This document shows, piece after piece, positions 10,242 to 37,797 of a DNA stretch of 64,000 nt. The position numbers were made by a program, and so were the translations under genes. Every line of letters starts with the position of its first letter. Position 1 is the stretch's first letter. The stretch is from Candidatus Altiarchaeota archaeon (lineage in GTDB: Archaea; Altiarchaeota; Altiarchaeia; IMC4; SCGC-AAA252-I15), in NCBI GenBank assembly GCA_043800255.1, contig JAZDNF010000006.1, positions 3,901-67,900 of the forward strand, given 5' to 3'. The notes under the pieces were generated by a model. That model worked only from the letters and a program-made list of their open reading frames with translations. It did no database searches and was not told the DNA's origin.

Positions 10242-12773
10242 ATGAGCCAGGGGAACGGGGAAAAGGTGAAAAGCAGGCCTACAACCCCGAAAAAACAAGA
10301 ACAACCTGAAGTCAAAAGCATAGAGCCGAAAAGAATAGAGACGACACAGGACCCTAAGTTCGCATACTCTGAAATCAACGGCATCAAAGTCTTCGGCCCA
10401 AACCCTGTGGAAACCGATGAGAAAGGAGATTTTGTCCACAATTCCACAGTATTCCCCGACGACGGCGTAATAGTGACCTCTCCCAGGATGCACGCCTACC
10501 AAATCCTTAGATATGCGGATTTCCTAGCAGGACAGAGCGGACGACGTCCAGAAGAGGAGGAGAGTAGATTCGCAAACCAGACAGTAAGATGCTTCACGAG
10601 AGGCAAGAAGTATTATATCAGGGTAGAAGAGGAAACTCCGGAGTCGATAGGAAAGTATGCAGCAGCAGCCGAATTATTAGAGAATTTCGTCGAGCCGACA
10701 TCCATAAAGTTCACGGAAATCAGGGATCAGTCGGTTAGAGAGCAATTCAAACGGAGGGGAAAGTACCATCTCGTCGCCCCGGAGCCGATGACAGACGAGG
10801 CTATCAGAGACTACACTGGACACGCTTACGTTCACCTGAATACGGCAAACAGGTACTATCACATGGACTCTGGCGAGCGGCTTCTGACTCCGTCAGAGTT
10901 TGAAAAGATCAGGAGAGACGTAGGAGACAGGGAGAAATTCCTGGGCAGACTCCATGAGATTGTGCAACTAAACGCCGATAAAAAATTACACGAACGGGGA
11001 GAGGTTGAACTTTACAACGTGGACGAACACAGATTCAGCATCCAAAAGGACATCAAAGGGTTTCTTGATATTGCTGAAAAAATCGATGAAACCGGATGGG
11101 ATAAAAGCGACATAAGAACGAAATTCGAATCCCTCGTCGACAGGTTCAGAAATGCCACAAACCCGGAGGACAGGAAAGACAGCATCAACAGCGCAGGATG
11201 GCGTAACAGGATGTACGCCAAACTCAAGGGAATGCCCGGCGAGGAATACCCGACCATGCGCCTTACTCCCGCCCTTTTCATGTACCTAGAATGGTATCCT
11301 GGAGCCGAGATTAAGGACAATAAGATGACATACGACCCAAAGGTCAAACCCGTTGCAAGGGAGATTATAGAACACTTCCATGGCAGATTCCCAAACCTCG
11401 AATACGTCAACATAGGACGCATAAAACACAAACTCGTGGAAGAGACGAAGGTCAGAAGGCCTGGCAGGGAAGTATACCTTGTAATGTTGAGAAACAAGGG
11501 GGAGAAGGAGGAGAGAGCCTTCGAAGTGAGAGAGCAGAAAGTCGATGTGAAATCGATAATCGGCGGATTCCTGAAGGAGGGCAGGATAACCGAAGAAGAC
11601 ATCAGAAACGAAACAGAACAGTATAAACAGTGCCTGAAGGAAGCGCAAAAGAAGTCGCTGGCTTATAAGAACTACGTAAACAACAGGATCATAATCAACA
11701 ACATGCTGGGCATGAGAATGCAAACGCCAGAGCCGTTAAGCCTTGAGAACAGCGAAGAGTACTTTATCTGGAAGTTCATACCAGGCATCGAAACCTCAAG
11801 CATCCCGTCAGTCTACTTCGGAGACAAGAGCTGCGTAACGGAGTCTGCAGTTCAGATGGGAAGGGTTGCCGCAATAAACATGATAACCGGCAGGCGCATG
11901 TTCGACATGGGCACAGAAGTCGCGTCGTTCTCGAAAAGGTTTCTCTCACGCGGACAAAAGCCGGGCGAGATCATGATCGTCGAGCCGGTTACAACGCTCG
12001 AGGAATTAGACAAAAGATTAGACGACCCCGCAAACACGGAGATATACGCCCAAAGCCTCAAAAGAATCCTTTCAAAAGCCGGCGGCGAAGGTCTCGGCGA
12101 CAGAGAGTTCGACGAGATAAAAGGAGCGTTCTACTCGTCCCTTGGGAGAACGTATAATACCATCCGCAACAATTACCTGAAGAATCGTGACGAGTGGAGG
12201 AACCTGTTCGCAAATGTCGAGAAGGACGAGTATGACATACACAACAAATGGCTGAAAGTCCTCGACAGGCTTGAAAAGCACGACGACCCTAGAACTATTA
12301 CAAGAGCGACAGAACAGTGCCTGCAGGAGATCGAGGACATCAGAAAAGTAGAAGCCGGCGAAGGACTCAAGTGGGAGAAGATAGAGAGAGGATACGGGAT
12401 GACGGGAAAACTCGTCAACCAGGCCGGCTTGCACGGCAGACCAGCCAAGACGGTCGCGGCGGCGGTGAAACACTACAAGAACGCTGACAAAAGCCTTGAC
12501 GTGCAAGTCTACGACGACCGTGCTGGAAACTTCGTACCGGCAGAAAGCGTGATAAGTCTCCTCCTCATGGCAGCCACCAAGGGCACGGACCTGCATTTTC
12601 ACGCAACCTGCGACGACGAGAGGATAGCGAAGAGAGTCTTGAACGACATCGGCCACATGATCAACGTCGGGTTCCACGAAACCATGAACGAAAAAGGTTA
12701 CCCGCAATTCAACAGTGAAAAATTGGAGGAAGAGCTAGGCTACCAGCCAGGGGTTTTGAGGATAAAATCGTAG
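10242..12773 (+). CDS. 843-aa protein whose ~720-aa N-terminal region is of unknown function, fused to a C-terminal HPr-like phosphocarrier domain.
   Basis: The C-terminal ~90 aa read GKLVNQAGLHGRPAKTVAAAVKHYKNADKSLDVQVYDDRAGNFVPAESVISLLLMAATKGTDLHFHATCDDERIAKRVLNDIGHMINVGF. This matches the HPr fold pattern including the active-site GLH(A/G)RPA motif, with the His codon at ~12432. The N-terminal region has no P-loop and only weak resemblance to AceK-like atypical kinase motifs (VMLRNKGEKEERAFEVREQKV; AAINMITGRRMFDMG). Confidence 0.75.
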   Translation: MSQGNGEKVKSRPTTPKKQEQPEVKSIEPKRIETTQDPKFAYSEINGIKVFGPNPVETDEKGDFVHNSTVFPDDGVIVTSPRMHAYQILRYADFLAGQSGRRPEEEESRFANQTVRCFTRGKKYYIRVEEETPESIGKYAAAAELLENFVEPTSIKFTEIRDQSVREQFKRRGKYHLVAPEPMTDEAIRDYTGHAYVHLNTANRYYHMDSGERLLTPSEFEKIRRDVGDREKFLGRLHEIVQLNADKKLHERGEVELYNVDEHRFSIQKDIKGFLDIAEKIDETGWDKSDIRTKFESLVDRFRNATNPEDRKDSINSAGWRNRMYAKLKGMPGEEYPTMRLTPALFMYLEWYPGAEIKDNKMTYDPKVKPVAREIIEHFHGRFPNLEYVNIGRIKHKLVEETKVRRPGREVYLVMLRNKGEKEERAFEVREQKVDVKSIIGGFLKEGRITEEDIRNETEQYKQCLKEAQKKSLAYKNYVNNRIIINNMLGMRMQTPEPLSLENSEEYFIWKFIPGIETSSIPSVYFGDKSCVTESAVQMGRVAAINMITGRRMFDMGTEVASFSKRFLSRGQKPGEIMIVEPVTTLEELDKRLDDPANTEIYAQSLKRILSKAGGEGLGDREFDEIKGAFYSSLGRTYNTIRNNYLKNRDEWRNLFANVEKDEYDIHNKWLKVLDRLEKHDDPRTITRATEQCLQEIEDIRKVEAGEGLKWEKIERGYGMTGKLVNQAGLHGRPAKTVAAAVKHYKNADKSLDVQVYDDRAGNFVPAESVISLLLMAATKGTDLHFHATCDDERIAKRVLNDIGHMINVGFHETMNEKGYPQFNSEKLEEELGYQPGVLRIKS

Positions 12774-12778
12774 GTTCG

Positions 12779-13894
12779 TCATTTCAAGGCCTTCAACAGA
12801 TCAGCAGAATCATACCTTAATAGGATGTCCCTGTTCCTGCCCCGCTCACCCGTCTTATAGGAAGTGTCTATCAGCTTGTAATGCTCCAGCTTCTGGATGA
12901 TCTGATTGTACTTTTTTATGCCGATTCTCGTGTCCCTGTTGAAGGCTTCGTAGATTTCGCCTGACGACTTTATGTCTGAGGAGGCTATCAGACGCAGAAG
13001 CTCCCCCTCCTCAGCATCCAATGCCCCGACGACCTTCTTAAGGCCGAGCAGCCTGGAACCCTTCTCAAACGCCTCCTCAACATGCTCCTTCGTAACCTTC
13101 TTCGAAGCCTTCGACTCCGCGAGGTATGCGCTCCTCCTCAGCAGGTCTATGCCAACCCTCAGATCACCCTGCGAGAACGTCTTCTCAACGACAATGTCCA
13201 GCACATTCTCGGATACCACGCCAGGATAGAAGCCGAACTTAGCTCGGTTGAGGAGTATCTCCCTGATCTCACTCACAGTATAAGGCTGGAAGAAAATCTC
13301 CTGCGGATTATAAACCGACTTCGTCTTCACATCCAACTGAGACATGTATTTTTCGTCTATCATGATCCCGATTATGCCGACCTTGTCGAAACCGTAGGAG
13401 CTGTGCGCCTTCAACAAGTCCAAGAGAACGCTGTCAACGTTCTTCTCCAAGAACAGGTTGTCGAACTCGTCCAATGCGACAGCCAGCGTCTTCTTCTCCG
13501 AAGTCAATTTCCTGAAAACCCTCTCCTTCACGGACTCCAGAGGCTTGCCGGTGTCAGGAGGACTGTGACCGAACACCTTCTCATGTATCTTAGAGAATAT
13601 GGAAAAGCGGGTGTGACAGTCCTCACAGTTGATGTAAACGGGAAGAAGCCGGGAAGTCTCCTCAGCGACCTGATTGAACAAGTATTTGATGGCAGTAGTC
13701 TTCCCCGTGCCCGGAGGCCCGTGGAGCAACGTATTCAAAGGGCTCACACCCCTCAGACCAGGCTTCAACGCAAGACTCAACCCCCCCAACTGGTCATCCC
13801 TGTGGATGAAATCCTCAGGAACATAGGACGGCGTGAAAACCTCCTCATCCTTGAAGAGCGTCTCATCCGACATGAGGAGTTTAGCCTTTTTCAC
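12779..13894 (-). CDS. cdc6: Orc1/Cdc6 replication initiator (AAA+ ATPase with winged helix).
   Basis: 371 aa with Walker A GPPGTGKT, Walker B LDEFD, and a C-terminal winged-helix region. Confidence 0.9.
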   Translation of the reverse strand: MKKAKLLMSDETLFKDEEVFTPSYVPEDFIHRDDQLGGLSLALKPGLRGVSPLNTLLHGPPGTGKTTAIKYLFNQVAEETSRLLPVYINCEDCHTRFSIFSKIHEKVFGHSPPDTGKPLESVKERVFRKLTSEKKTLAVALDEFDNLFLEKNVDSVLLDLLKAHSSYGFDKVGIIGIMIDEKYMSQLDVKTKSVYNPQEIFFQPYTVSEIREILLNRAKFGFYPGVVSENVLDIVVEKTFSQGDLRVGIDLLRRSAYLAESKASKKVTKEHVEEAFEKGSRLLGLKKVVGALDAEEGELLRLIASSDIKSSGEIYEAFNRDTRIGIKKYNQIIQKLEHYKLIDTSYKTGERGRNRDILLRYDSADLLKALK

Positions 13895-14249: not shown

Positions 14250-14275
14250 ACAAAAAATCGAGTATTTTTAAACCA
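14250..14275 (+). promoter_or_regulatory. Putative archaeal TATA box upstream of the riboflavin operon.
   Basis: cgagTATTTTTAAAcc lies ~30-45 nt upstream of the ribB ATG at 14301. Confidence 0.4.
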
Positions 14276-14300
14276 TCAGGCGCACATATATTACCCTATC

Positions 14301-15427
<1,127 letters not shown>

Positions 15428-15442
15428 ATGAGGTGATATGAT

Positions 15443-15856
15443 ATGGAAAAAATAAACATGGGGATTGTTGCGGCAGAGTTCAACTATGACATAACCTATG
15501 CGATGGTCGAACTCGCCAAAGAGCACGCCGCATTCTTGGGGGCGAACGTCGTGGACATAAAGAAAGTTCCCGGAGTGTTTGACATGCCGTTGGTCGTCAA
15601 GCAGATGCTCAAGAGGAAGAACATAGACTGCGTCGTAACCCTCGGAGCAGTCATAGAAGGGCAGACGGAGCACGACGAGATTGTCATGCAACACGCTTCG
15701 AGGAAGATAGCAGACCTGGCTTTGGAGTATGAGAAGCCGACCGCGTTGGGCATTGCAGGACCCGGTATGTCAAGGCTTGAAGCCCACAAGAGGGTCGAGT
15801 ACGCGAAACGCGCCGTAGAAGCAGCAATCAAGACATGCAAAGTGCTGAGAGCATAG
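15443..15856 (+). CDS. ribH: 6,7-dimethyl-8-ribityllumazine synthase.
   Basis: 137 aa, ...GIVAAEFNYDIT...VVTLGAVIEGQTEHDEIV... lumazine synthase pattern. Confidence 0.9.
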   Translation: MEKINMGIVAAEFNYDITYAMVELAKEHAAFLGANVVDIKKVPGVFDMPLVVKQMLKRKNIDCVVTLGAVIEGQTEHDEIVMQHASRKIADLALEYEKPTALGIAGPGMSRLEAHKRVEYAKRAVEAAIKTCKVLRA

Positions 15857-15886
15857 TATTCTACCGCCAGCTTCCGTAATATTAAC

Positions 15887-16474
15887 GTGGAAGCCCAGAT
15901 GGGGAAGGACGCCTTCAGAAGGCGGTGGGACGACTACCTGAAGAACGAAGTCCCGAAGCTCATGGAGGAGGGCGTAAGAGACGGTAAACTTGACAAGGTC
16001 ACGTATCCCTCCATCGTTCTCGACGCGAGCGCACTCCAGATAGAGAGTCTGAACCTCCCTTCCGAGGAGGAAACGGCCGTAAAAGCGATAAACGCCAGGG
16101 AAGTCCAGTACGCCTCGCTGATAAAAAAGCTCGGCAGAGGCGAAAAACTTACCGAAAAAGATTCCACGAGATTCTACGACACATTCCGTGCAGATGTTTC
16201 CGAGATGAGACAAGACCTGAAACTCTCGGACATAAACCTCAGGAGAGATGAGGACACGAAATTAAACCAGTTTCTCAAAACAGACCTCACGAAAATCCAC
16301 GAACAGGGTACTCTGACAGGAGAGACCATCATGTCAGCGTTGAAATTCAACAGACTCCACCTCAGAGCCAGACTGGGCGATGAGAAGTTCAGGGAATATC
16401 TTGAGCTTGACAGGATAGCGAGAGACAGCCTCAGAAAAGAGAGCATGAAAAAAGCGCCGCCAGAGCTGAACTGA
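15887..16474 (+). CDS. Hypothetical protein (195 aa, predicted helical) embedded in the riboflavin cluster.
   Basis: Complete ORF between ribH and the pyrimidine reductase gene. No recognisable motif. Confidence 0.5.
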   Translation: MEAQMGKDAFRRRWDDYLKNEVPKLMEEGVRDGKLDKVTYPSIVLDASALQIESLNLPSEEETAVKAINAREVQYASLIKKLGRGEKLTEKDSTRFYDTFRADVSEMRQDLKLSDINLRRDEDTKLNQFLKTDLTKIHEQGTLTGETIMSALKFNRLHLRARLGDEKFREYLELDRIARDSLRKESMKKAPPELN

Positions 16475-16518
16475 ACCGTTTAAATACAGCTAATAGAATA
16501 TGTAACCGGTGGGTCAGG

Positions 16519-17148
16519 TTGGAACCGTACGTCATACTGAATTCTGCGATAAGCTTGGACGGCAAGATAGGCGGCAAAGCCAAGCAGATGGTCTTCTCCA
16601 ACAGGCTTGACACGTATAGGGTGAAGCAGCTGAGGGGGTCTGTTGACGCTGTCATGGTCGGCATAGAGACCATAAAGGCCGACAATCCTGAAATCTTGGT
16701 TAAAACCTCCGAGGGGAAGGAGCCTGTCAAGGTTATCATAGACCCGAAAGCAGAAATCCCGTTGGACGCGAACATACTCAAGGAGGACGCGCCCATAATA
16801 GTGGTGACTTCGAAGTCTGCAATTGGAAATAGGGTCGAGAGGATAAAAAACGCCGGCAAAAATGTTGAAGTAATGCAGATCGGCAGGGACGCAGTAAACC
16901 TCCGCGAGATGCTCTGGAGGCTCTATGAGATGCGCATCAGGAAAGTCCTGCTGGAAGGAGGCAGGAGCCTCGCGAGGAAGATGCTCAACGAAGGCTTCGT
17001 CAACGAGATGTTCCTCACAGTCGCCCCCAGGCTGATAGGAGACGGCATCGGATTCTTTCAGGGGGATGTTGACAAGGACATCGACCTCAAGCTTGAGGGA
17101 ATCCTGCAGTACGGAGACCTCGTAGTATTACATTATACCGTAAAATAA
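16519..17148 (+). CDS. 2,5-diamino-6-ribosylamino-4(3H)-pyrimidinone 5'-phosphate reductase (RibD reductase-domain / ArfC-like).
   Basis: 209 aa, ...YVILNSAISLDGKIG...VDAVMVG..TIKADNP.L...VLLEGGRSL..., the dihydrofolate-reductase-like RibD C-terminal-domain pattern. Confidence 0.8.
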   Translation: MEPYVILNSAISLDGKIGGKAKQMVFSNRLDTYRVKQLRGSVDAVMVGIETIKADNPEILVKTSEGKEPVKVIIDPKAEIPLDANILKEDAPIIVVTSKSAIGNRVERIKNAGKNVEVMQIGRDAVNLREMLWRLYEMRIRKVLLEGGRSLARKMLNEGFVNEMFLTVAPRLIGDGIGFFQGDVDKDIDLKLEGILQYGDLVVLHYTVK

Positions 17149-17150: not shown

Positions 17151-18401
17151 CTACTTCTCTCCAGGGTACATCTCCAGAAGCTCTAATGCGTAATCTCCCA
17201 GTTCCGAGCGCACCTGCCCGCCCGGGTTGTCTTTTCTCACTATATGCCTGAGACATCTTCTGGCTGACTCTTTGCTATTCTTGTCGTAGAATTCCTCGTC
17301 ATCAGCCGGCTTGTTCGCCAGATGATAGGGAGTCCTGCCTGCGAGACGGTCTTCGAACTTTCTGATCACTTTTTCTGTGATGATGTCAGGCCGCCGGTCT
17401 ACTATGCCGTTGAACAGCGTCACCATGTCAGATCGGGTAGAGGCTGACAGCAGGTCGCTTACTATGGCGCCCGCAAGATTCTCCATGAAATCCTCAGTAA
17501 GCAACTGGGGACGTGTAGCCGCGACCCCAGTGATATTCTTCAGCATGTGAGTGTACATCCAGCTGTACTGTTCGTTGGTTATGCTCCTGTCAAAGTCTGT
17601 CTTCCGGAAAAACTCGACCGAGTTTCCAGCTGCCCTGGCGACATAGTGTATTTTTTTGGCGAAAGCTCCCATTGGATGCTTCTCCTTTGTGACAATGTCC
17701 CAGAGGTTCTCATCCCTTTTAGAGATTGTAGCACTGGGCAGTATCTCAACCCCATTTTTGTCAAGCGCCTTGTAGACTTCACGGTTCACGTGCTTTAGTT
17801 TGGGGTCGGCGTCGTTCCCTTCCGGAGAGTCCAACAGTTTCCGATACTCTGCCCCAAGAGTCAGCCTCTTCACCATAGTGCCGAACTCGTCAGACGCCAG
17901 GCCCAGTCCCCTGGTGAAGCCGCCTAACGCTTTGACCGCCCGTTCCTTGGGGGTATCATCCGTCTGTATCACGCTTGCCAGCGCCTTCCCAGCGTACTTG
18001 TAAGTGTCATGGTCGGTTTCGATTATGTTATCGTCTCTTATCATCTCAGAGAGGTCTTTTATCGCCAGGTCAGCCCACTTTGACCTCTGAGCAGGCGTCT
18101 TGAAAACTATCCGGCTCAATGCAAAACCAACATAGGATTTCGCCTCCTTGCCTGCGTTGTACTTCCGAAGGGTGTCAACCAGCAGCTTGTATGCCGGCTG
18201 CGCAATCTCATCCGGCCCGTCTATAACGTATTTATCGAGCTTCTTGCAGGCAGAATCCATCTTCTGAGTGTCATCGCCTTCCAGGATGCCCTTAGCCTCA
18301 GCGATAGTTGATAAAGCCTCCATCAGAAAAGGCTCCCTCAACAGGGGGAGCTTGTCAGAGCCGCCACCCTCCAAGTTCAGCTTGACGATTTTAGTGGTCA
18401 T
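17151..18401 (-). CDS. Hypothetical all-alpha protein (416 aa). Its N-terminal 19 aa are identical or near-identical to those of the adjacent paralog.
   Basis: Starts MTTKIVKLNLEGGGSDKLP. 4-nt overlap with the upstream gene. Last gene of a minus-strand operon. Confidence 0.6.
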   Translation of the reverse strand: MTTKIVKLNLEGGGSDKLPLLREPFLMEALSTIAEAKGILEGDDTQKMDSACKKLDKYVIDGPDEIAQPAYKLLVDTLRKYNAGKEAKSYVGFALSRIVFKTPAQRSKWADLAIKDLSEMIRDDNIIETDHDTYKYAGKALASVIQTDDTPKERAVKALGGFTRGLGLASDEFGTMVKRLTLGAEYRKLLDSPEGNDADPKLKHVNREVYKALDKNGVEILPSATISKRDENLWDIVTKEKHPMGAFAKKIHYVARAAGNSVEFFRKTDFDRSITNEQYSWMYTHMLKNITGVAATRPQLLTEDFMENLAGAIVSDLLSASTRSDMVTLFNGIVDRRPDIITEKVIRKFEDRLAGRTPYHLANKPADDEEFYDKNSKESARRCLRHIVRKDNPGGQVRSELGDYALELLEMYPGEK

Positions 18402-19057
18402 TTTGGTCTGGGCCAGATTTTATTCTTGCGATGAAATATCCTAACATCCTCACTTAGGTTAGGCGCCAATTGGAACCTTTTCCCGCCAAGATGTATCTCG
18501 CCTGAGTGAGCATTAGATCCCACATTCATTCCAGCGTCACCATCCACCATCACGGTTGCGCCGTCCAGCTCGCTGCCTAGGCCGTTTTCTGCGCTGCCGT
18601 GTATCGTCACCTTCCCGGACTTCGCACCAAACGCGGCGTAATTCCCGACATCCCCCAGTATCGTAACCTCCTTCTGATTGTCCAAGCAGCTGCAAAGGTA
18701 GTTCAGTTTTGGCAGGCGGGCCACATCCAACACAATATTATTGTCCGGACAGTTGTTGATAAGGGCGCTCAGGAACATTCCAGCCTGAAACTGGAAGTAG
18801 ACTTCAGTATCAGAGTACGAAGGCAATATCACATCGATAAACCTTTGCATTGCATTAGCGTCGACAGAGACGCCAGAGGCGGCTTCTGAAGCATATAGGT
18901 AGTTGAAGTGCCCTGAAACCTGAGAGGTAAAACAGGATTGATGGTATTTCTCGTCCAACATCCCGAGAAGCCTCTCATCCACCCGGTTATCTCTCAACTT
19001 CGGCAGCCTGTCAGAGCCGCCACCCTCCAAGTTCAATTTCACAATCTTAGTGGTCAT
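18398..19057 (-). CDS. GXGXXG beta-helix domain protein (glutamate synthase domain-3 / FwdC-like).
   Basis: 219 aa. N-terminus is MTTKIVKLNLEGGGSDRLP. The C-terminal half reads GDVGNYAAFGAKSGKVTIHGSAENGLGSELDGATVMVDGDAGMNVGSNAHSGEIHLGG, a GXGXXG repeat pattern. Confidence 0.7.
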   Translation of the reverse strand: MTTKIVKLNLEGGGSDRLPKLRDNRVDERLLGMLDEKYHQSCFTSQVSGHFNYLYASEAASGVSVDANAMQRFIDVILPSYSDTEVYFQFQAGMFLSALINNCPDNNIVLDVARLPKLNYLCSCLDNQKEVTILGDVGNYAAFGAKSGKVTIHGSAENGLGSELDGATVMVDGDAGMNVGSNAHSGEIHLGGKRFQLAPNLSEDVRIFHRKNKIWPRPK

Positions 19058-19099: not shown

Positions 19100-19858
19100 T
19101 CACATTATATCGTCGAATAGTTTTTTCGCATTGTTGATGTAGTTGAGATCGTGTTTTATTATATCAGACACTGTCTCCCTGCGCTTTTCATCTGTTATGG
19201 TTTCCGCTTTCTTCAGCCCGTTTTTGAGAATCCGCATCGCCTTCTCGCCTCTCCCAGAGGGTATGGAACGCCCCAGAGGCGGTTTGGACTCGTCGACCAG
19301 TGAGTTGGCGAGCGCTGCCCCCGCCCACTTGTTAGTCTCGTATGTGAAGGCTTCGCCTGTGAGAGCATCCTCGAGGACGTCAAAAACGGATTTAACAATG
19401 TCCTCCCTGTCGCCGGGCGCCAAGACTATGACCTTCCTAAGCCCCTGGGATGCAGCCTGCTTGGCGTCGCTGTCAGTTTCACTGTCGGTTAGAGCCTCGG
19501 TCAGAAGAGCCATACCAGCATTAGCCCTCTTCCAGTCCGGGTCTTTGATTACAACATCTGCGACAGCGTCGGCAGCCTTCAGCTTGTCAGACAGCGTTGC
19601 CTTTGGATTGAATAGGAGTTCCCCTTTTGTGCCAGCCAGTTCAGGCTCCTTTAGGGGAGGCATCTCCGCGGCATCCTTCTGGGGTTTCTTCTCCTGAGGA
19701 GGCATACTGTAGGGTTGCTTCTTCGCCTCCTTCGTCTCCCCCGTGCGGAGGTCAACGGTAAACCTTCTCGGAAGCTGTTTTTCTCTAACCATTTGTCGGT
19801 TTTTTGAGGTAGGTTTCTTTGGGGCCTGCCGCCTGTTTTCCGTTAACGTATACTCCAA
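19100..19858 (-). CDS. Hypothetical protein (252 aa, HEAT-like helical). The true start may be the internal Met near 19792.
   Basis: Complete ORF. Its 5' end overlaps the bactofilin gene by 74 nt in a different frame; if Met23 is the start the overlap is 8 nt. Lys/Pro-rich N-terminal region. Confidence 0.5.
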   Translation of the reverse strand: MEYTLTENRRQAPKKPTSKNRQMVREKQLPRRFTVDLRTGETKEAKKQPYSMPPQEKKPQKDAAEMPPLKEPELAGTKGELLFNPKATLSDKLKAADAVADVVIKDPDWKRANAGMALLTEALTDSETDSDAKQAASQGLRKVIVLAPGDREDIVKSVFDVLEDALTGEAFTYETNKWAGAALANSLVDESKPPLGRSIPSGRGEKAMRILKNGLKKAETITDEKRRETVSDIIKHDLNYINNAKKLFDDIM

Positions 19859-20366
19859 CCTTTGAAGTTGCTCCCTCCTTTGACAGGACGTCGCCCTTCT
19901 CAGCCTCTATCCTATCCTCTGCGGAAACCCTGCCAGACCATGATATGACGCTCATCCTGGCTGACACCTTGTTGGCTGAGATGTCGCCTTCAGCCTGGAT
20001 CTCGCCCCTGGAGGAGGTGATATTCCCTTTCGCCTTTATGCCAGCCCCCCTTGAATGGATGTCGCCTTCGACGTTTATGCTGCCGTCGGCTGTTATCTCA
20101 CCAGCAGCTATGACAGAGTAAGCCTTGAAGTTCTCATGGGGGATGTGAAGTTTACCGTCCGATATAACCGTCTTGGCAGACGCTGATGAGTCCAGGTACA
20201 GGTTCTCGCCCGGCTCTCCTCTGACGACACTATTGTTTCCGCGCACCACAGTATAGGCTTCGCCGCCCACGTCTATGGTCTCCTTCCCGTCAACAACCTT
20301 GATCTCCTCAACATATTCCGTATCTTCCCGCCTTTTGGTTCTTTCAATGCTGCTCATGTTGATCAC
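19785..20366 (-). CDS. Bactofilin-like beta-helical cytoskeletal protein (DUF583 family).
   Basis: 193 aa. The core reads ITADGSINVEGDIHSRGAGIKAKGNITSSRGEIQAEGDISANKVSARMSVISWSGRVSAED, matching the bactofilin winding repeat (G.I..G.I/V). Confidence 0.7.
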   Translation of the reverse strand: MINMSSIERTKRREDTEYVEEIKVVDGKETIDVGGEAYTVVRGNNSVVRGEPGENLYLDSSASAKTVISDGKLHIPHENFKAYSVIAAGEITADGSINVEGDIHSRGAGIKAKGNITSSRGEIQAEGDISANKVSARMSVISWSGRVSAEDRIEAEKGDVLSKEGATSKVGVYVNGKQAAGPKETYLKKPTNG

Positions 20367-20437: not shown

Positions 20438-22753
20438 TTAATGGAGGATTGATTTGATGTCATCGTCTGATAGCATTTCCACACCGGTTATTCCAAGGCG
20501 CTCCGCCAGAGTTTTTAGGATGTCCCTTGCACCGTAGCTTTTGATTGCCGACTCATCAATGCCGCCGCCCATCTGGTTCACGACATCCTTTAGGATTCCG
20601 CGTATTGTTAAGCTGTTCTTGTTCAGGTCCTCCACCGGAACATTGCCTATGCCCCCGTGTTTTTTCGACAGGCTCCTGGCAGCTTCAAGCCTTACCGGCC
20701 TCCGGATGTCATCAACCAGCCTCAACGCCTCAGGCTCCCTGCTCAGTCTCTCGCATATCTGCTTTTCTATGACAGCATCAACTCCTTTCGTCCCCAGCCC
20801 GAATTTCTGATGCTCATCAGCCACCTTCTTTCTTAGAGACCTCTGGGACATGGTTGGGTCCGCATCAAGGGCGTCAAAGTATAGCATTGCGATCTGCTTG
20901 TTCCTCTCCCAGTCAGGCTGCCTGTAAAGAGTGTCAAACAGCTTCCCCCTTGTTTCTGCCGGTTGACTGGCGAGAATCTCCCTGAACTCTTTAGGACTTA
21001 CTGGCTGAATTTCACCCCACTCCACCAGATAGCCGTTAACCTTCTCAGCAACCAGCGGCTGCTCGCTTAAACGTTTGTATGCCCCTGAGATTGCGTCCAC
21101 AATGGTCTGTTTGCCCCGCTTGAACTCATCAGCCAACTGTTTGAGTTCAACCCCGCCAGTTAGGTGCCGTCTCATGGTCTCACGATCCCTTTCAGAGCCT
21201 ATGTCAGATTTTTCAGAAGTTAGCGGGTTATTTCTAGGCACCTTGGATATGAACCACCCTAGGTCTGCCTGCGGGACATGCGAGAGCACTTCCCTGACAG
21301 TTTCTGCAGACACCTTGGGGATAGACTTCAGCCTCCCTGATTCTGCAAGCAGCTCTGAGACAGCATGCGGCCTTTTGCGGAGACGCTCTATGGAGTTCGT
21401 AACCGCCTTCTCGGACACGTGGGAGTCGTACTCTTTCATCCTGTTGATGTCCGGGCAGGAGTACGCTTCCCTGAAATGCAGCCTCATTATCTCGATGTCC
21501 CTGTCCCTGTTCCCGGTCTTCGGCAGACCGGACATTATCTCGTTGAACTTCTCATCGCTTGTGCTCCTCAGAACCCATCTCACCGCTTCATTAGTGATTT
21601 CAGGGTTCTCTATGCGCTGTCTGAACCCGTTTAGCTCCCTGATAACATGCAGGTTCCCTCTAAGCCCTTCTATAACAGCTGCAGACAATGTGATGGGTCT
21701 ATTCTTTCCCACGCCGAACCGCTCAGAAAGCTCTGCTACTGTGCTGTCGTCTTCCTGATCGAAGTAAGCGCTCAACAGCTCCCGCTCCTTCGGATCAGAG
21801 GGGTATGCGGTTGACTGGCTTAGTATGCGCTCCCTATCGGTTGAGGATATCAGACGCAGAATTTTTCGGGTATCCTCGACAGAAGGCATTTGCAATTTAA
21901 TTCTGGCTCCCGGGCCAGGTATGGAGTTTTCAATGTGCTCTCTCAGATCGGAGTTTTTCAGGACATTCTTGATCGCCTTTGTCTCGCGGCCGTCAAGAGT
22001 TCCTTGCGCCAATCCCAATTTGGAGGCTGCCTGCGCTCTTGTGATGGACCTCGCACCAAAGCGCAGTCTCAGTATATCAGAATCAGATTTAGGGACTCCT
22101 CTCCGAAAGCAGTCAGCCAGAAAGTTATCAAATTTGTCACCTGGCATCTGCTCCAGCAAAGACCTGTAATAGTCCACTTCCTCCCCGGAGGGCATCAGAC
22201 CGAGTTTCTCGAACGCCCTTGACTCTACCCTGACAATCTCTTTAATGCTGGTGTCCGTCAGCTCCCTGATCCTTTTGTCGCCGTGGCCTTCCTTGAAACG
22301 CAGTGACAGTATGTTCCTCTCCTCGTCGGTCAGAGCCTTGGAGCCGATAAGCGTGGCCTTCTCAGCAGGATCCATCGACTTCAACATCTTATGTACTTCC
22401 CTGTATGAGATTTTCCTTTTGTGATAGGGAATGACGTCAGGTTTCTTCGGGGGGCTTATGGACAATCCGACAACGCCCTCAGAGGTTATCGCGTACGCGT
22501 CTGACTGTCCCAACTCAGAGGACAGGAACTTTTTCTTTCTCTGCGGGGGAACGTCTGCGCGTTTGACCTCAGAGACTTCCAGGCGCCTGCCCTTCCCGCT
22601 GAGGTCGCCCAGCTTTTTGACGCTTATCTCCTTAAGCTCGTCTCCGTCGCGCAGGTAGACTTTCGCGTTCTCAGAATGAAGCTTTCTCAATAGCTGTTCC
22701 TTCAGCACCGGAATCTGGTCGTCGCTTATGTCTGCAACCTTTATTTTCGCCAT
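20438..22753 (-). CDS. 771-aa protein containing about five tandem sigma-70 region-4 / LuxR-like HTH repeats.
   Basis: Repeats include EERNILSLRFKEGHGDKRIRELTDTSIKEIVRVESRAFEKLG, SDILRLRFGARSITRAQAASKLGLAQGT, RDIEIMRLHFREAY...VSEKAVTNSIERLRKRP, RETMRRHLTGGVELKQLADEFKRGKQTIVDAISGAYKRL and NKQIAMLYFDALDADPTMSQRSLRKKV. Each resembles the sigma70_r4 pattern (..ILxLRF....T..EIA..LG.S...V......A..KLR). Confidence 0.65.
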   Translation of the reverse strand: MAKIKVADISDDQIPVLKEQLLRKLHSENAKVYLRDGDELKEISVKKLGDLSGKGRRLEVSEVKRADVPPQRKKKFLSSELGQSDAYAITSEGVVGLSISPPKKPDVIPYHKRKISYREVHKMLKSMDPAEKATLIGSKALTDEERNILSLRFKEGHGDKRIRELTDTSIKEIVRVESRAFEKLGLMPSGEEVDYYRSLLEQMPGDKFDNFLADCFRRGVPKSDSDILRLRFGARSITRAQAASKLGLAQGTLDGRETKAIKNVLKNSDLREHIENSIPGPGARIKLQMPSVEDTRKILRLISSTDRERILSQSTAYPSDPKERELLSAYFDQEDDSTVAELSERFGVGKNRPITLSAAVIEGLRGNLHVIRELNGFRQRIENPEITNEAVRWVLRSTSDEKFNEIMSGLPKTGNRDRDIEIMRLHFREAYSCPDINRMKEYDSHVSEKAVTNSIERLRKRPHAVSELLAESGRLKSIPKVSAETVREVLSHVPQADLGWFISKVPRNNPLTSEKSDIGSERDRETMRRHLTGGVELKQLADEFKRGKQTIVDAISGAYKRLSEQPLVAEKVNGYLVEWGEIQPVSPKEFREILASQPAETRGKLFDTLYRQPDWERNKQIAMLYFDALDADPTMSQRSLRKKVADEHQKFGLGTKGVDAVIEKQICERLSREPEALRLVDDIRRPVRLEAARSLSKKHGGIGNVPVEDLNKNSLTIRGILKDVVNQMGGGIDESAIKSYGARDILKTLAERLGITGVEMLSDDDIKSILH

Positions 22754-22762: not shown

Positions 22763-24514
22763 TCACAATTCTGCAATGAACTTGCTGGCCCTCCCGCTTT
22801 TCTCCAGGCTGTCGAATACCGACTCTAGGTGACCCCTAACCCTCTGTGAGAGGTCCTTATTATCATGCGCTTTAAGAAGGTCTCGTATCGCGGGCACTGC
22901 AATGCCGCCAGAAGCGAATTTCGCAAGCGTTTCCAAGCCTGATGTGGCAGCCATCTTCTCCCTGTCGGAGGTTCTGCCGCTGTTAAGGTCTTCCGCGAAA
23001 TCTTCGCGCGCCTGCTCCATGCGGGACCTTGCCACAGCCGACGTGTTCATCCCCTTGAAGCCTGCCTCGATTGTCCTGCGGACTTTCTCAGGGAGGCTCT
23101 TATCACGCTGTAATCCGATAACGTCCTTGACAGCTTGTACTCCGACGTCCTGGGAGGAGAATTTGATCACATTCACGAGGCCTGCAAGAAGCCACTGTTT
23201 CAGTTCGATCAGCTGGTCGCCTGTGACCCCCTCCGGTTCGTCTCTTATCGCTGACACCATGTCGTCGTGGGTCTTATCTATCATCCCAGGAGGCTTGTTT
23301 TTCAAGTCATACAGTAGACCATAATGCGCCCAGTATTTTGTCCCGTAGTCTCTGCCGTTTCTCAGGGCATCAGACAACGCCTGATAGGCCTTATCCTGTA
23401 ATCCCTCAGGCCCATGGGATGCAATAGCTGACAGACTGCCTGCAGCCATGTACTGGCTTGTCAATCCAGGCACGTCAGTGCCGAAGTCCGAGCCTTCGGC
23501 ATTCAGTAGGCCGTCCCTGAAGACGTCCAGAAGATTGGAGGTTACCTTCTCGGGGTATCTCCTTAGTATGCTCTGCAGTCTTTGGTCGACGTGTTTTCCG
23601 GCAAGAACCGGCAGGTTCCCGCTCACGGCTGATTTGGACAGCAACAGAAGCTGGCCGGTTGTGATTGATGATCCGTTGTAGAGTATGGAATCCACCACTT
23701 CAGCAGCAGCATATCTGACGTCCTTGGAGGAATCTCCTGAGAAAGCGTCCAGAAGCCTCTCGCATATGTGTGTTCCGATTTTCTCATGCCCGCTCACCGC
23801 CAGTTGGGCGACATTATCCCTCAGATCGTCTTTGTAGTTTCGTGTTCGTCTATCCCTCCCCTCGAGACTCCTACTCTTCGTCAGCCCGTCAATCAGAGTG
23901 TCGGCTACACCAACGGTTAGGATATTGTGGAATTCAGGCCTCTTGTAAACCGACTTCAAAGCCCTGTGGATTACCCAAGAGTTTGATTTGTCCCTCGCGA
24001 ACTCGTTCGCCAATATCTGAACCTCGTCAGAGGTGACGAGTTCAGGATGCCTCCACATCGAATCCGCAAGATTGGAGGCGCATGCGTCCCGCGCCTCTCC
24101 GTTACCCCACTTTGCGACCGCGTCCGACATCATCCTGCGCGCCCTGACTGACCTGTCTTTTGGAGCGTTTACTAGAATGCGCCTTAGCGCTTCTCCTGAC
24201 TCGTGCTTCGAAAAGTCCGGCGAGTCAGCGCTTCTGAGAACCTCTTCAAGCACTCCGAAGGCTTGGTCAACGGTGTCAGCATGTTCCTTCGGAGCCCTGA
24301 TTATGATCTGCGACAGGCCCTTGGCAGCATTCACTTTGGGCATCTGCTGATAAGGCCTTTGGCTGTATTCTCCCTCCCCGAAGAGGGCGTCCCTGAAGTC
24401 TCTTATGTTCTCGCTTAATGCTGGTTTCAGGGGGATTGCTCGTACCTTGTCCTTCTCCCCGTCAGGCGCTTTTTGCAGGCTGAAACCGTCTTTTTGGATT
24501 TCCTCGATAGACAT
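22763..24514 (-). CDS. Hypothetical HEAT/ARM-like helical repeat protein (583 aa); first gene of the operon.
   Basis: Complete ORF, 9-nt spacer to the downstream gene, helical repeat character. Confidence 0.55.
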   Translation of the reverse strand: MSIEEIQKDGFSLQKAPDGEKDKVRAIPLKPALSENIRDFRDALFGEGEYSQRPYQQMPKVNAAKGLSQIIIRAPKEHADTVDQAFGVLEEVLRSADSPDFSKHESGEALRRILVNAPKDRSVRARRMMSDAVAKWGNGEARDACASNLADSMWRHPELVTSDEVQILANEFARDKSNSWVIHRALKSVYKRPEFHNILTVGVADTLIDGLTKSRSLEGRDRRTRNYKDDLRDNVAQLAVSGHEKIGTHICERLLDAFSGDSSKDVRYAAAEVVDSILYNGSSITTGQLLLLSKSAVSGNLPVLAGKHVDQRLQSILRRYPEKVTSNLLDVFRDGLLNAEGSDFGTDVPGLTSQYMAAGSLSAIASHGPEGLQDKAYQALSDALRNGRDYGTKYWAHYGLLYDLKNKPPGMIDKTHDDMVSAIRDEPEGVTGDQLIELKQWLLAGLVNVIKFSSQDVGVQAVKDVIGLQRDKSLPEKVRRTIEAGFKGMNTSAVARSRMEQAREDFAEDLNSGRTSDREKMAATSGLETLAKFASGGIAVPAIRDLLKAHDNKDLSQRVRGHLESVFDSLEKSGRASKFIAEL

Positions 24515-25863: not shown

Positions 25864-26240
25864 AAAACAGGATACTGATAATTGGGATAATAGCGCTGCT
25901 TGTCTTGTCCAGCCCAGGATGCCTCAGAAAATTGAGAGGCGGACAGAGAGCCACCACAATCGTGCCAACGACCATAGCAGAGACTCAACAGGCTGCCCCA
26001 ACAGACGAGGAAGCCTCCGAAGCAGAGCCGATAGCTGACATAACCTCTGAAGAATCCAAGCTGACGCCTCCGGACGTTGACTTAGACTTAGACCTCGAGC
26101 CAACAACGACTGTTGAAACCACCATCCCAGAGGTAATGTCAGACGAAGACCTGGCAGAACTTGATACCATCATAAACAACATCAACACCATAGAAACAGA
26201 ACTGTACGCAGGCGACCTGGACCTGGACATCAGCCTGTGA
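25860..26240 (+). CDS. Small acidic secreted lipoprotein-like protein (126 aa).
   Basis: Signal peptide MKNRILIIGIIALLVLSSPGC, then a D/E/T-rich region. 4-nt overlap with the upstream gene. Confidence 0.5.
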   Translation: MKNRILIIGIIALLVLSSPGCLRKLRGGQRATTIVPTTIAETQQAAPTDEEASEAEPIADITSEESKLTPPDVDLDLDLEPTTTVETTIPEVMSDEDLAELDTIINNINTIETELYAGDLDLDISL

Positions 26241-26351
26241 GCCCCCATTAGTTCCCTTCTTAGGGGACTAGGGCGAGCCACAGGCCGCACCAAGATAACG
26301 GGGGATTGAGAGCAAGGGAATCAGTAAGAAGTCTGGGATTGTCTCTTGCAG

Positions 26352-26374
26352 TCATTGCTCGTCTTTGTGATATA
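26352..26374. repeat. Direct repeat copy 1 (tcattgctcgtctttgtgatata).
   Basis: 22/23 identity to 27269-27291. The match extends ~12 nt further (tctcttgcag versus tctctggcag) across a 6-nt indel. Confidence 0.6.
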
Positions 26375-26432
26375 ACCTTAAAAAAGAGGATATGATAGTA
26401 TTCCTAGATCTATTTGAGGCATAGTGTTGGTT
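26352..26432 (-). pseudogene. Truncated remnant of a relE-like toxin gene 3' end.
   Basis: The minus strand encodes ...NTIISSFLRLYHKDEQ*, bounded by an upstream in-frame stop. This matches the C-terminus of the intact RelE at 27269-27517 (...KIIFLDLYHKDEQ*). The terminal 23 nt are a 22/23 match. Confidence 0.4.
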
Positions 26433-26460
26433 TTATTTTAGCATTTCGATATTTGATGTA

Positions 26461-26955
26461 ATGTCAAACGCTGGCCCCGTTATTCTGTATTTGGATAATA
26501 CCGAGCTTTACGGCTCCTTGAAGAAAGCGATAAAACACTATCTAACTGGAGGTACTGGAGGTGTACGATCTAAGTTTCTGGATTATCTAAAGAAGTTGCA
26601 GGATTCGGGGGGTGTCGTTGTATTAACTTCTGAGCTCGCTGAATTTGAAGCTATTAGACGACTGCTCACGGATTTCCCAGAATTGACGTTTAACAAGGCT
26701 CTTGAAGCTTGGATGGAGTTGAGGGGAAGGTATGATATTCGTTCAATAGATCTCCGAGACTGTAAGACAATAAATCTTGACCTTAAATTCTTCCAGAAAA
26801 CAGGATTCGACTATAAAGATGGGATGCATTATTCAGTGGCAAAAAAATATGGGGCTTTTATTGTGACTGGAGATGGGAAATTTGGAGAAACGGCAGAGCA
26901 GGTATACAAGGGTAAAGTACTAAGAAGAGGGGACGTATATCAAAAATTCAAGTAA
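26461..26955 (+). CDS. PIN-domain protein (VapC-like nuclease fold), 164 aa.
   Basis: The N-terminal Asp sits in ILYLDNTELYG. C-terminal AFIVTGDGKF resembles the PIN TxDxxF motif. AT-rich codon usage. Confidence 0.55.
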   Translation: MSNAGPVILYLDNTELYGSLKKAIKHYLTGGTGGVRSKFLDYLKKLQDSGGVVVLTSELAEFEAIRRLLTDFPELTFNKALEAWMELRGRYDIRSIDLRDCKTINLDLKFFQKTGFDYKDGMHYSVAKKYGAFIVTGDGKFGETAEQVYKGKVLRRGDVYQKFK

Positions 26956-27268
26956 TTATTTAGATTTCTTAATGATTTTAGCTAAATCTTTTGCTATGGT
27001 ATCTAGATTAACCCTGTTAGACACTCCTTTTACCTCAGTTACAGGAATCCGAAAACCATTAACTTTCAGGGTTTTTTTCACCGCATGGATTTGCATAATA
27101 GCTCACCCGTATACAATATAATAGAGGATATAGAACTTAAAAAAGGGCCATTTTTGTTTATTCTACTCAAACGTGCATTTACTTCTTAAAACAGCCTTCT
27201 AGGCAGTATACAGTTAGTTTCTGTTTTTCTGGGCAGCGTTTTTCCATGTTTTTCTCTGGCAGGATCAC

Positions 27269-27291
27269 TCATTGCTCGTCTTTGTGGTATA
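27269..27291. repeat. Direct repeat copy 2 (tcattgctcgtctttgtggtata), which is the 3' end of the relE coding sequence.
   Basis: See copy 1. The two copies flank the PIN gene 26461-26955, about 915 bp apart. Confidence 0.6.
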
Positions 27292-27517
27292 GGTCTAGGA
27301 AGATTATTTTGTCCTCTTTTTTGAGGTGCATGTATGACAGGCGGAATGGCGGGATTTTGACTTCCCTGCTGTCCTTTCGGACGTAGCGCATCGGTTTTCC
27401 GACTTCAGGATTGCTGACTATCTTCTTAATCTGCTTTTTGACTCGTTCTTTCAGGTCTCGGTTTTTGATTCTCTTTATTATGTTCTCAAAATGCGGTTCG
27501 TATGCGACAGTTACCAT
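27269..27517 (-). CDS. relE: RelE/ParE-family type II toxin.
   Basis: 82 aa. The C-terminal ...RLSYMHLKKEDKIIFLDLYHKDEQ pattern is typical of RelE/StbE toxins. 7-nt overlap with the upstream antitoxin gene. Confidence 0.7.
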   Translation of the reverse strand: MVTVAYEPHFENIIKRIKNRDLKERVKKQIKKIVSNPEVGKPMRYVRKDSREVKIPPFRLSYMHLKKEDKIIFLDLYHKDEQ

Positions 27518-27780
27518 GTCTCAAGTTCAGCCAGGAATTTGTCGCCGCTAGTCTCCTTGAACTTGCCCTTCTCGTATCTTTCCAACGCCTCCACAGTCCT
27601 TTTCGCGAACTTCAAGTCTTCCATGAAAGTCCCACCCAACTCCCGGACCGGTTTGAGTATGAACTGGCGGTCTTTTTTGATGATGACGAATTTATCGCCC
27701 ACATTGAACCCCTCCCGCATGTCCTGCGGTATCACAACCTGACCCTTGGAACTTAATTTGGTAACGTCCACATTAATCAT
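27511..27780 (-). CDS. AbrB/MazE/SpoVT-family antitoxin.
   Basis: 89 aa. ...LSSKGQVVIPQDMREGFNVGDKFVII is a swapped-hairpin AbrB/MazE motif. Immediately upstream of and overlapping relE. Confidence 0.7.
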   Translation of the reverse strand: MINVDVTKLSSKGQVVIPQDMREGFNVGDKFVIIKKDRQFILKPVRELGGTFMEDLKFAKRTVEALERYEKGKFKETSGDKFLAELETW

Positions 27781-28096
27781 CTAGATCACCATAATAAGAT
27801 TCGTCTTACCAATATATAAACCAACATTCTGGGCAAAAAACCCACCAATAGTCGCGGAAGCGGGGAGTTGCCCCTTCAGTTTTCCGTTGGAGAAGCAGAG
27901 TTTCCTGCGTCGCCCGCTCTCCCGCACATCCAAGTGTAGTGTAATACAGTAAAAACATCACAAACAACGGAAAAATAGGGGGCTGTGCGAGCAATATGGA
28001 CAGGTAAATGCATAGTTGGCCCATATTTTATTGCGGGTAAAGCCGGTAGACCAATATACCTTGGAGTGAACGTCTCCAGTGTCTGCCGGTACTGTG

Positions 28097-28960
28097 TCAC
28101 TGTTTCTGTCCTCTTTTCCTGACTATTCTTTTCAGTTTTTCTGGAATTTGAAGGTAGTTTTCAGATGTTATTACGCTTCTTCCGCTCTCGTACTCTAGTT
28201 TTTTTCTTGCGTCGCCGGCTATGGTGCCCCCTCGTCTGGCCACTGTTTTGTTTTGGATAAATCCTCTTGCATCCCTTTTACGGGCTATCTCCGTCGTTGC
28301 CGCCTCTCCGAGCATGGTGAATATCAGCTCCAGGTCGGTCATATGGTCCCGCAGGTTCTCGCGCTTTAGGCCCTTGTATTTCAGGTATTGACTGGGGGTC
28401 ATGCCGAAGGTGGCGTCCGATATCTCAGCCGTCAATATGGCGAATTCTGTGTCTTGTTTAACTCCCCTCTTGTTCCATTCTCCGGTAAGTTCGTCTCTTA
28501 CGGCGATACCTCTCACTCTTTTCTCAATCCAGTCCTCAGAGTAGCCTTTTGCTTGGTAAATCCCTCGCATCCGTCCCATAGCCAGTTCAGGATTCCCTAT
28601 CTCCTGCACTCTCTCGTAGCCGACTTTCGCAAGCCATCTCTTGAAAGGTTCTGCTTTCTTGGAGGGGATAGATTGTATTATCCTGAACATAGACTCTGTG
28701 TTGGCGCAGTCTGTTAGGTATTTTTTGCCGTCTGGTGCGGACAGTTTCAGTTGTACCCAAATTGGGGACAACTGAAGTTGTGCGAATTCCCTCTCTTTGA
28801 CCTTCCCCCAATACTGGCGGGGTGTCGGGCTGTCAGTCAAAACCTGGACGACGTCCACGACCGAGAAATACCATTCCTTATCATGCCAGACCCTACGAAT
28901 CTGTTTGCCCTGAAAAACGACCAACGAATTATCCTCATCCATACCAACCACAAACAACAA
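28097..28960 (-). CDS. Bro-N domain protein (phage antirepressor / DinD-like family).
   Basis: 287 aa. N-terminal VVFQGKQIRRVWHDKEWYFSVVDVVQVLTDS fits the Bro-N pattern. Island context. Confidence 0.65.
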   Translation of the reverse strand: MLFVVGMDEDNSLVVFQGKQIRRVWHDKEWYFSVVDVVQVLTDSPTPRQYWGKVKEREFAQLQLSPIWVQLKLSAPDGKKYLTDCANTESMFRIIQSIPSKKAEPFKRWLAKVGYERVQEIGNPELAMGRMRGIYQAKGYSEDWIEKRVRGIAVRDELTGEWNKRGVKQDTEFAILTAEISDATFGMTPSQYLKYKGLKRENLRDHMTDLELIFTMLGEAATTEIARKRDARGFIQNKTVARRGGTIAGDARKKLEYESGRSVITSENYLQIPEKLKRIVRKRGQKQ

Positions 28961-37790: not shown

Positions 37791-37797
37791 ATGGTCG

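Follow-up and report, generated by a model that had tools for sequence, protein, structure and literature searches.

Six closely spaced or overlapping genes run along the minus strand, from 24514 to 17151, of the stretch of Altiarchaeota DNA presented above (64 kb; we refer to the whole stretch as the window), and they encode products of 583, 771, 193, 252, 219, and 416 amino acids (aa), in this order. We name the last two genes A and B. They overlap by an ATGA that holds both the stop of A and the start of B, and both open reading frames (ORFs) are present where a sequence-only reading of this DNA had placed them. The two proteins begin with nearly the same peptide, and this shared N-terminal tail, its evolutionary signal, and what it may do are the subject of our analysis. 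The features in question, in nucleotide (nt) positions of the window, are:

18398..19057, minus strand: gene A, 219 aa, with the tail (residues 1-23), a predicted four-helix domain (24-102), and a FwdC/GltS-type GXGXG beta-helix (107-215).
17151..18401, minus strand: gene B, 416 aa, with the tail followed by a predicted all-alpha, HEAT-like orphan body.
18989..19057, minus strand: shared tail, codons 1-23 of gene A, MTTKIVKLNLEGGGSDRLPKLRD, from its translation, the codon comparison, and an AlphaFold2 predicted local distance difference test score (pLDDT) below 50.
18333..18401, minus strand: shared tail, codons 1-23 of gene B, MTTKIVKLNLEGGGSDKLPLLRE, with AlphaFold2 pLDDT below 50 at residues 1-22.
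19009..19035, minus strand: 27-nt identical block, copy in A (spanning codons 8-17), an exact match.
18353..18379, minus strand: 27-nt identical block, copy in B, an exact match.

The N-termini of A and B read MTTKIVKLNLEGGGSD[R/K]LP[K/L]LR[D/E], with 20 of the 23 residues identical (BLASTP, E-value 8e-10 for the pair). The first 19 residues are the same save for R17K, and the likeness, which the sequence-only reading had described as a 19-residue peptide common to both gene starts, runs on to residue 23. Past residue 23, BLASTP of A versus B reports nothing significant. The bodies are unrelated, as that reading also held, and its term "paralogs" is wrong for the two genes, which have the tail alone in common. 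At the other end, the ATG is the precise limit of the likeness, with no relation between the 60 nt that precede it in A and those that precede it in B. The tail is not a gene conversion tract running into non-coding DNA, a scenario that had been named as speaking against a selected peptide. We find no further copies of the tail in the window besides those of A and B, either at the protein or at the DNA level, and because the two copies differ, the pair is not an assembly artefact.

Over the first 57 nt (19 codons) there are 8 differences, 7 synonymous and 1 non-synonymous. The sequence-only reading had estimated about 9, nearly all synonymous. Over the full 69 nt (23 codons) there are 12 differences, which amount to 8 synonymously changed codons and 3 changed residues, with codon 20 differing at 2 positions; the corresponding Nei-Gojobori counts are 8 synonymous (Sd) and 4 non-synonymous (Nd) differences. 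For the 19 codons, the Nei-Gojobori synonymous and non-synonymous divergences are dS 0.86 and dN 0.023, with a ratio omega of 0.027 (Fisher p = 9e-5), and for the 23 codons omega is 0.10 (p = 5e-4). When the differences are placed randomly, equally few residue changes are obtained with p = 2e-4 (19 codons) and p = 5e-4 (23 codons). The codon pattern and the random-placement test together imply that this stretch is coding, that it is old enough to have accumulated many silent changes, and that it is constrained as a peptide. The tail is under purifying selection at the peptide level, as had been proposed before any such test, and flanking synonymous sites are near saturation.

The synonymous changes are unevenly placed. 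Every one of codons 4-8 differs, while no difference at all is seen in codons 9-16 (27 nt), a contrast with p = 0.02 by permutation. On the assumption of saturated synonymous sites, and with the genome's codon usage, the 27-nt identity has p = 2e-4. The block is found in 2 copies only in the window, with 0 expected by chance, and it holds a GGAGG that resembles a Shine-Dalgarno (SD) sequence. This core could be a short and more recent conversion patch, or it could be constrained at the nucleotide level. Extended to the whole tail, the argument would be that there is no peptide function at all, and that what we see is recurrent conversion between adjacent genes, or a nucleotide-level element at the 5′ end (for translation initiation or coupling, or as the target of an RNA or protein). 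The two genes are indeed adjacent, the core is indeed identical, and the SD-like motif lies inside it. But outside the core, in codons 2-8 and 17-23, 8 codons are changed synonymously versus 3 changed residues, and gene conversion is unable to create a constraint of this sort; even by themselves, these flanks show constraint at the coding level. Moreover, the RNA folds of the two 5′ regions are neither shared nor unusually stable (z = -1.3 and 0.0), and Rfam has no match in either of them, which leads us to reject an RNA-structure explanation. SD sequences are present in 9 of 55 genes here, the majority having none, and the exact start of the similarity at the ATG also speaks against this reading. 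We consider it very improbable that the tail is conserved mainly at the DNA level, and given the codon pattern in the flanks this is the least likely of the alternatives that we weigh.

What follows the tail is different in each protein. The body of A matches PF01493, and thus belongs to the GXGXG beta-helix superfamily of FwdC and GltS C-terminal domains; its motif is GXGXG, and not the GXGXXG that had been read from it. The FwdC models score A at 35.5 and 37.9 bits, versus equivalog cut-offs of 130.65 and 340, and the FwdC chains of solved structures also match A well below the family cut-offs. There are no fwd genes among the window proteins scanned, and no other fwd or glt gene near A. We discarded A as a true formylmethanofuran dehydrogenase subunit C (FwdC/FmdC) on account of these sub-cut-off scores and the missing fwdA/B/D partners. 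The AlphaFold2 model of A, built from a 10-sequence alignment, has a pLDDT of 87, with four helices at residues 24-102 and then the beta-helix at 107-215. Helix 1 starts at residue 24, and residues 1-23, all with pLDDT below 50, are not packed on the body.

B is an orphan. It has no Pfam family, and its only match among 5.8e9 clusters is to itself. An exhaustive phmmer search of 1.84 billion representatives returns B itself plus one weak match, to a HEAT-like repeat protein, P0012 (E-value 8e-6), and within the operon, B has a weak similarity to two proteins, those of 252 aa and 583 aa (E-values about 1e-3). A single-sequence AlphaFold2 model of B is poor (pLDDT 49) and all-helical, with helix 1 from residue 24 and residues 1-22 below 50. 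A test of B as a HEAT/ARM protein gives no Pfam match, this low-confidence helical model, and the weak similarities to P0012 and to the 583-aa protein. The model agrees, at low confidence, with the sequence-only reading that the second protein is all-alpha. In both models, the tail appears as a flexible and probably disordered segment placed directly ahead of the folded part in two unrelated folds.

Could the tail serve A and B separately, with no common partner? It might determine stability or degradation, or it might fold back on the protein that carries it, as an autoinhibitory or capping segment. The selection on the peptide fits such roles, as does a flexible segment at the terminus, and a co-regulated turnover of two operon products would also select identical tails. 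However, the folds of A and B differ, so the same intramolecular docking surface is unlikely, and in the confident model of A the tail is predicted to be unpacked on the body. We assign these separate roles a low probability.

The end of the tail leads to the rest of the operon. Its last six residues (LPKLRD in A, LPLLRE in B) fit the pattern [LIMV]P.L[KR][DE], which has 4 occurrences among the likely window proteins (about 19,930 aa in sum). This operon accounts for all 4, and none of them extends beyond residue 71 of its protein: they lie at position 18 in A and in B, at position 14 in the 771-aa protein, and at position 66 in the 252-aa protein. By shuffling, the probability of having two or more matches outside A and B is 8e-4. 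The remaining genes of the operon are:

19100..19858, minus strand: 252-aa alpha protein, with MPPLKE at residues 66-71 (nt 19663-19646), which aligns with the LPLLRE of B.
19785..20366, minus strand: 193-aa beta-solenoid-like protein, without the motif, a conceivable scaffold or receptor.
20438..22753, minus strand: 771-aa protein with a Sigma70_r4-like helix-turn-helix (HTH), N-terminus MAKIKVADISDDQIPVLKEQ, and IPVLKE at residues 14-19 (nt 22714-22697).
22763..24514, minus strand: 583-aa HEAT-like protein, the operon's first gene, with a relaxed motif, IPLKP, at residues 27-31 (nt 24436-24422).

Residues 18-151 of B, LPLLRE included, align with residues 66-193 of the 252-aa protein (BLASTP, E-value 0.001), and the 583-aa protein, with its weak similarity to B, matches HEAT_2 (E-value 0.0055). 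The 771-aa protein matches Pfam Sigma70_r4 (6.5e-10) in two stretches, and has weaker matches to other HTH families. By eye, it seems to consist of repeated HTH units of about 90 aa, and it has no match in solved structures. We considered its N-terminus as a third copy of the whole tail and rejected it, as its score of 31 falls within the background of other ORF N-termini. The 193-aa protein had been labeled a bactofilin, and this label is not supported: there is no match to PF04519 at E ≤ 0.1 and no PDB sequence match, and what we find are weak beta-solenoid matches, to FapA (E-value 0.002) and to the NCBIfam MinC (E-value 0.0014).

A, on the other hand, has relatives in other archaea. We find nine database homologs, 25-35% identical to A over the best local alignment, and they share a conserved N-terminal motif of their own (N-motif), unlike the tail of A. 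A hidden Markov model (HMM) built from 25 relatives finds A with an E-value of 1.9e-36, aligned from A residue 29 to the C-terminus (residue 29 is ORF position 43, as the ORF numbering in this search includes 14 residues upstream of the ATG). A carries the signature of the family, which in the archaeal group DPANN forms tandem arrays of GXGXG genes: a helical domain with ..FLSALIN.., the beta-helix, and a C-terminal GEIHL...IFH+. Residues L96, S97, A98, L99, and I100, then G186, E187, and I188, and finally I207 and H209, are invariant in the family. A is the sole member of its GXGXG family in the window, so there is no tandem array here.

To describe the family, we assembled the contigs of the homologs and 31 loci from GTDB representative genomes, mostly from Micrarchaeota, with one Aenigmatarchaeota and one Nanoarchaeota, and searched every ORF in them with two HMMs, one for the N-motif and one for the body. 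FwdC-like GXGXG paralogs stand in tandem at these loci, as many as 11 to an array, and a genome has several such arrays (L001, L002/L003, L006, and L007-L037; for instance, L013 1876-10364 and L011 2131-6984). In total, 134 ORFs carry the N-motif plus a GXGXG body. In Micrarchaeota, the N-motif is about 30-35 aa long and reads ..LA.A.RFGRYKPE.E..VRK.EV, and it is an island of conservation within the GXGXG family (0.56 versus 0.25 in the flanks). As a criterion for the family, it can be written more loosely as ..LA.A.[RK]FG[RK][YF]KPE.E..VR..[ED]V, and A lacks it. In the literature that we searched for GXGXG, FwdC, or MoxR in DPANN, we found nothing relevant, and no description of this GXGXG array family.

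Eight more ORFs carry the N-motif on an unrelated body of about 260 aa, with the signature ..SYLRQRREMLRSMTPEQ..EFHKDLN..IVPN..DRILTET..WTGT.VIYE.PD.. and no Pfam or PDB match. Five of the eight are direct neighbors of GXGXG genes: they open an array, lie inside or close one, or accompany a single copy. The distance to a family gene of the same contig is about 1 kb for two others and about 9 kb for the last one. The positions of the eight are:

L011, 6199-6984: member of the ~260-aa family.
L019, 5421-6206: member of the ~260-aa family.
L016, 1850-2650: member of the ~260-aa family.
L013, 973-1872: member of the ~260-aa family.
L010, 7997-8566: member of the ~260-aa family.
L024, 8563-7475: member of the ~260-aa family.
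L034, 844-1683: member of the ~260-aa family.
L037, 799-335: member of the ~260-aa family.

In one metagenome-assembled genome (MAG), Sv348, the N-motifs of the ~260-aa proteins and of the GXGXG paralogs are 70-83% identical over 30 aa, and the proportion of synonymous differences (pS, 0.24-0.73) exceeds that of non-synonymous differences (pN, 0.12-0.23) in all pairs but one. The N-motifs of Sv348 are nearer to copies in the same genome than to those in other genomes, which is not so in the three other MAGs with the family. We observe how the arrangement found in Altiarchaeota recurs in Micrarchaeota: a conserved tail ahead of a helical domain, held in common with an unrelated family that is encoded nearby.

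Given that LPLLRE lies within the alignment of B and the 252-aa protein, and that the relatives of A have a different motif, we infer that the alpha-solenoid genes are where the tail, or no less than its C-terminal third, originally belongs. A would then have received a copy of it from an alpha-solenoid gene similar to B, in place of the N-motif that is typical of A's relatives.

Two further observations on the DPANN loci concern individual genes. P0009 (L005 1357-2049) is the only relative of A to share its C-terminal IWP. It ends in ...IWPEGGGSE*, and its stop overlaps the ATG of the next gene in an ATGA, which echoes the window, where A ends in ...IWPRPK* and B starts with MTTKIVKLNLEGGGSD; the genes downstream of P0009 in L005 have no similarity to B. 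In L001, an ORF of 71 aa with the N-motif alone (15009-15224) and an ORF with the body alone (14274-14984, minus strand) probably represent a frameshifted pseudogene within an array.

In several DPANN loci, the GXGXG gene is flanked by the gene of a MoxR-like AAA_5 ATPase on one side and that of a VWA protein on the other (L032 6184-12033; L036 8091-12066; also L007, L022, L035, and L016). By eye, the VWA proteins of L016 and L032 have an HExxH motif. MoxR-like AAA+/VWA machines typically act on client proteins, which would favor another reading of the tail: as a signal for sorting, export, or processing, recognized by a translocation, unfolding, or proteolytic machine such as an AAA+ ATPase, with no stable tethering. 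We consider this quite unlikely, and equally so its variants in which the tail is removed, or delivers both proteins to the cell surface, a partner cell, or a compartment. The N-terminal position, the predicted flexibility, and the Gly-rich stretch would suit such a signal, and the large paralog expansions in small Micrarchaeota genomes resemble effector repertoires. However, the tail has no hydrophobic core, twin-arginine, lipobox, or transmembrane segment. It is hydrophilic and Gly-rich, and in the test for Sec, Tat, or class III signal peptides the maximal Kyte-Doolittle 19-residue window reaches 0.85-0.87 in A and B, far from the N-terminus. All six operon proteins are devoid of hydrophobic segments that would span a membrane or resemble a signal, and classical secretion signals are therefore excluded. 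We also detect no relative of AAA_5 or VWA in the Altiarchaeota window, and the genes scanned in and around the operon include none for a shell, for secretion, for a peptidase, or for an ATPase, in a scan that covers about 10 kb on one side (window 7.9-17 kb), about 20 kb on the other (24.6-46 kb), and two genes at 54-58 kb.

The reading that we prefer, and to which we give about an even chance, is that the 23 residues are a portable N-terminal docking or address tail, probably disordered when unbound, that brings two unrelated soluble proteins to a common putative partner. Three parts can be proposed. The first, TKIVKLNL, is strand-prone, with an alternating pattern like that of an edge strand; the second, EGGGSD, could act as a glycine-rich hinge; and the third, the [LIMV]P.L[KR][DE] element, would abut the first helix of the body. 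The same handle would thus be mounted on a FwdC/GltS-type beta-helix protein (A) and on a HEAT-like alpha-solenoid (B), and having the same handle, both could dock to the same partner or assembly. The tail might, for instance, bind by adding a strand to a beta-solenoid, or it might lie in the groove of an alpha-solenoid. Another product of the six-gene operon would most likely be the partner, and the candidates that suggest themselves are the 193-aa beta-solenoid, which is without the motif, and the large HEAT-like protein. The sequence-only reading had spoken of a shared targeting, tethering, or interaction tag. Its selective constraint holds, and the flexible tail that ends where the body begins and the parallel in Micrarchaeota both agree with it; the function as a tag is what we, too, propose from these signs.

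Several observations weigh against this docking interpretation. The tail is known from one genome only: a search with a back-translated pattern for KLNLEGGG[S]D gives 0 matches in the GTDB representative genomes and 0 in viral contigs. (A lone match in a JGI metagenome, KLNFEGGGWD, lies inside a Gly-rich eukaryote-like protein and is due to chance.) The operon proteins are orphans, neither A nor B having a close relative in the databases searched, and for that reason comparative support from orthologous operons is lacking. The 27-nt identity hints at local gene conversion or at a nucleotide-level constraint that inflates the apparent conservation of the peptide in the core. A low pLDDT is no more than an indication of disorder, and the model of B is poor overall. 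The pattern [LIMV]P.L[KR][DE] was defined after seeing the sequences, so that its restriction to the operon is suggestive at most. The partners named above are candidates. Finally, the parallel between Altiarchaeota and Micrarchaeota is one of architecture, and not of demonstrable homology. The HMM of the N-motif scores A at -1.9 bits (E-value 11) and does not list B, and compared to 139 N-termini of the family, the best local alignment of the tail is no better than those of shuffled peptides (P = 0.8). MAFFT lines up the tail and the N-motif, yet neither the HMM nor the shuffle test supports their homology, which is unproven, and the N-terminus of the Aenigmatarchaeota protein (MVELKLP...GGLSDKF), which we considered as a bridge between the two, finds no support from these tests either.

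The docking interpretation has precedents. Bacteria fill their encapsulins and microcompartments by means of short terminal peptides that unrelated proteins have in common. The cargo-loading peptides of encapsulins and the encapsulation peptides of bacterial microcompartments (BMC) are terminal, about 10-20 aa long, joined by a flexible linker, common to unrelated proteins of a cluster, and recognized by one partner surface. The likeness to our case is that of a short terminal peptide on structurally unrelated proteins of one cluster. The difference is that the genes scanned around the operon include neither an encapsulin (HK97-fold) nor a BMC shell gene; specifically, none of the encapsulin HK97 and BMC-H/BMC-P Pfam families is found among the 36 window proteins scanned, which take in the operon and both of its flanks (the window has 57 likely ORFs). 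The tail presumably fits neither the encapsulin nor the microcompartment peptide consensus. Encapsulin cargo loading has been reviewed (PMC8346489).

The N-motif of the DPANN GXGXG arrays is a parallel in position and behavior, standing ahead of the helical domain of the same protein family, conserved among paralogs, held in common with an unrelated family, and with pN generally below pS. It differs in having no significant sequence similarity to the tail, in its many tandem copies per genome versus one here, and in its other neighbor families. FwdC, FhcC, and the glutamate synthase C-terminal domain have the fold and motif of the body of A, and in solved complexes the GXGXG domain is a scaffold for protein-protein contacts. 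A differs from them by its scores (35-38 bits versus cut-offs of 130-340) and by its additional N-terminal four-helix domain and tail. There are also systems in which a terminal segment or module plugs subunits into a common acceptor, such as the donor-strand or beta-strand-augmentation tails of chaperone-usher pilins and of archaeal thread and bundling pili, or dockerin and cohesin; dockerins are folded domains of about 70 aa. The alternating hydrophobic pattern of strand-donating tails is seen in TKIVKLNL, but those subunits are secreted and their acceptor groove lies in a homologous fold, whereas A and B have no signal peptide.

The surroundings of the operon are varied. At the start of the window and running off it (2-7846, minus strand), there is an ORF of at least 2,615 aa with right-handed beta-helix/NosD, CARDB, and CarboxypepD_reg domains, probably a huge surface protein. 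In 10242-13894, a protein of 843 aa, which near its C-terminus has a PTS-HPr-like domain (residues 724-796) that is unusual in archaea, adjoins an Orc1/Cdc6 gene (12779-13894). A riboflavin cluster on the plus strand (14301-17148) consists of DHBP synthase, two genes with the DMRL-synthase fold, and a RibD_C reductase, interrupted by a 195-aa ORF (15887-16474) without a family, and it stands tail-to-tail with gene B, 2 nt from the stop codon of B. On the other side, approximately 26000-38000 is an island of low guanine-plus-cytosine (GC) content (0.35-0.47 versus about 0.52), probably a horizontally acquired defence or mobile region, with PIN-domain proteins (26461-26955 and 37220-37654), a Bro-N protein (28097-28960), a fused Eco57I/MmeI-like restriction-modification enzyme (30637-33606), and a PD-(D/E)XK nuclease (33682-34899). 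The operon itself has the GC content of the genome and no PADLOC or PHROGs matches, and we reject a defence-system or phage origin for it.

A broader proposal, which we regard as unlikely, would make the tail the lineage-specific address label of an undescribed archaeal system of assembly or sorting, present in Altiarchaeota and DPANN, in which interchangeable N-terminal tags recruit GXGXG proteins and the unrelated products of neighboring genes to a single machine or scaffold. The machine in DPANN may be the adjacent MoxR-like AAA+/VWA pair, and here the GXGXG protein would have been re-addressed by a swap of tags, the local one taking the place of the ancestral one.

As it stands, the tail on these orphan genes is a new case of a known principle, that of terminal address peptides, with a wider undescribed family of DPANN genes behind it. 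To our knowledge, comparable address systems are hardly known in archaea. For a phylum with almost no experimental cell biology, the tail offers a sharply delimited 23-residue candidate tag that carries a signature of selection. It also points to a larger undescribed phenomenon, that of small Micrarchaeota genomes with dozens of tandem FwdC-like paralogs each, whose N-motif is also found on an unrelated family. If these peptides are indeed docking tags, they could show what a large orphan gene family does, and they could provide orthogonal tags for engineering.

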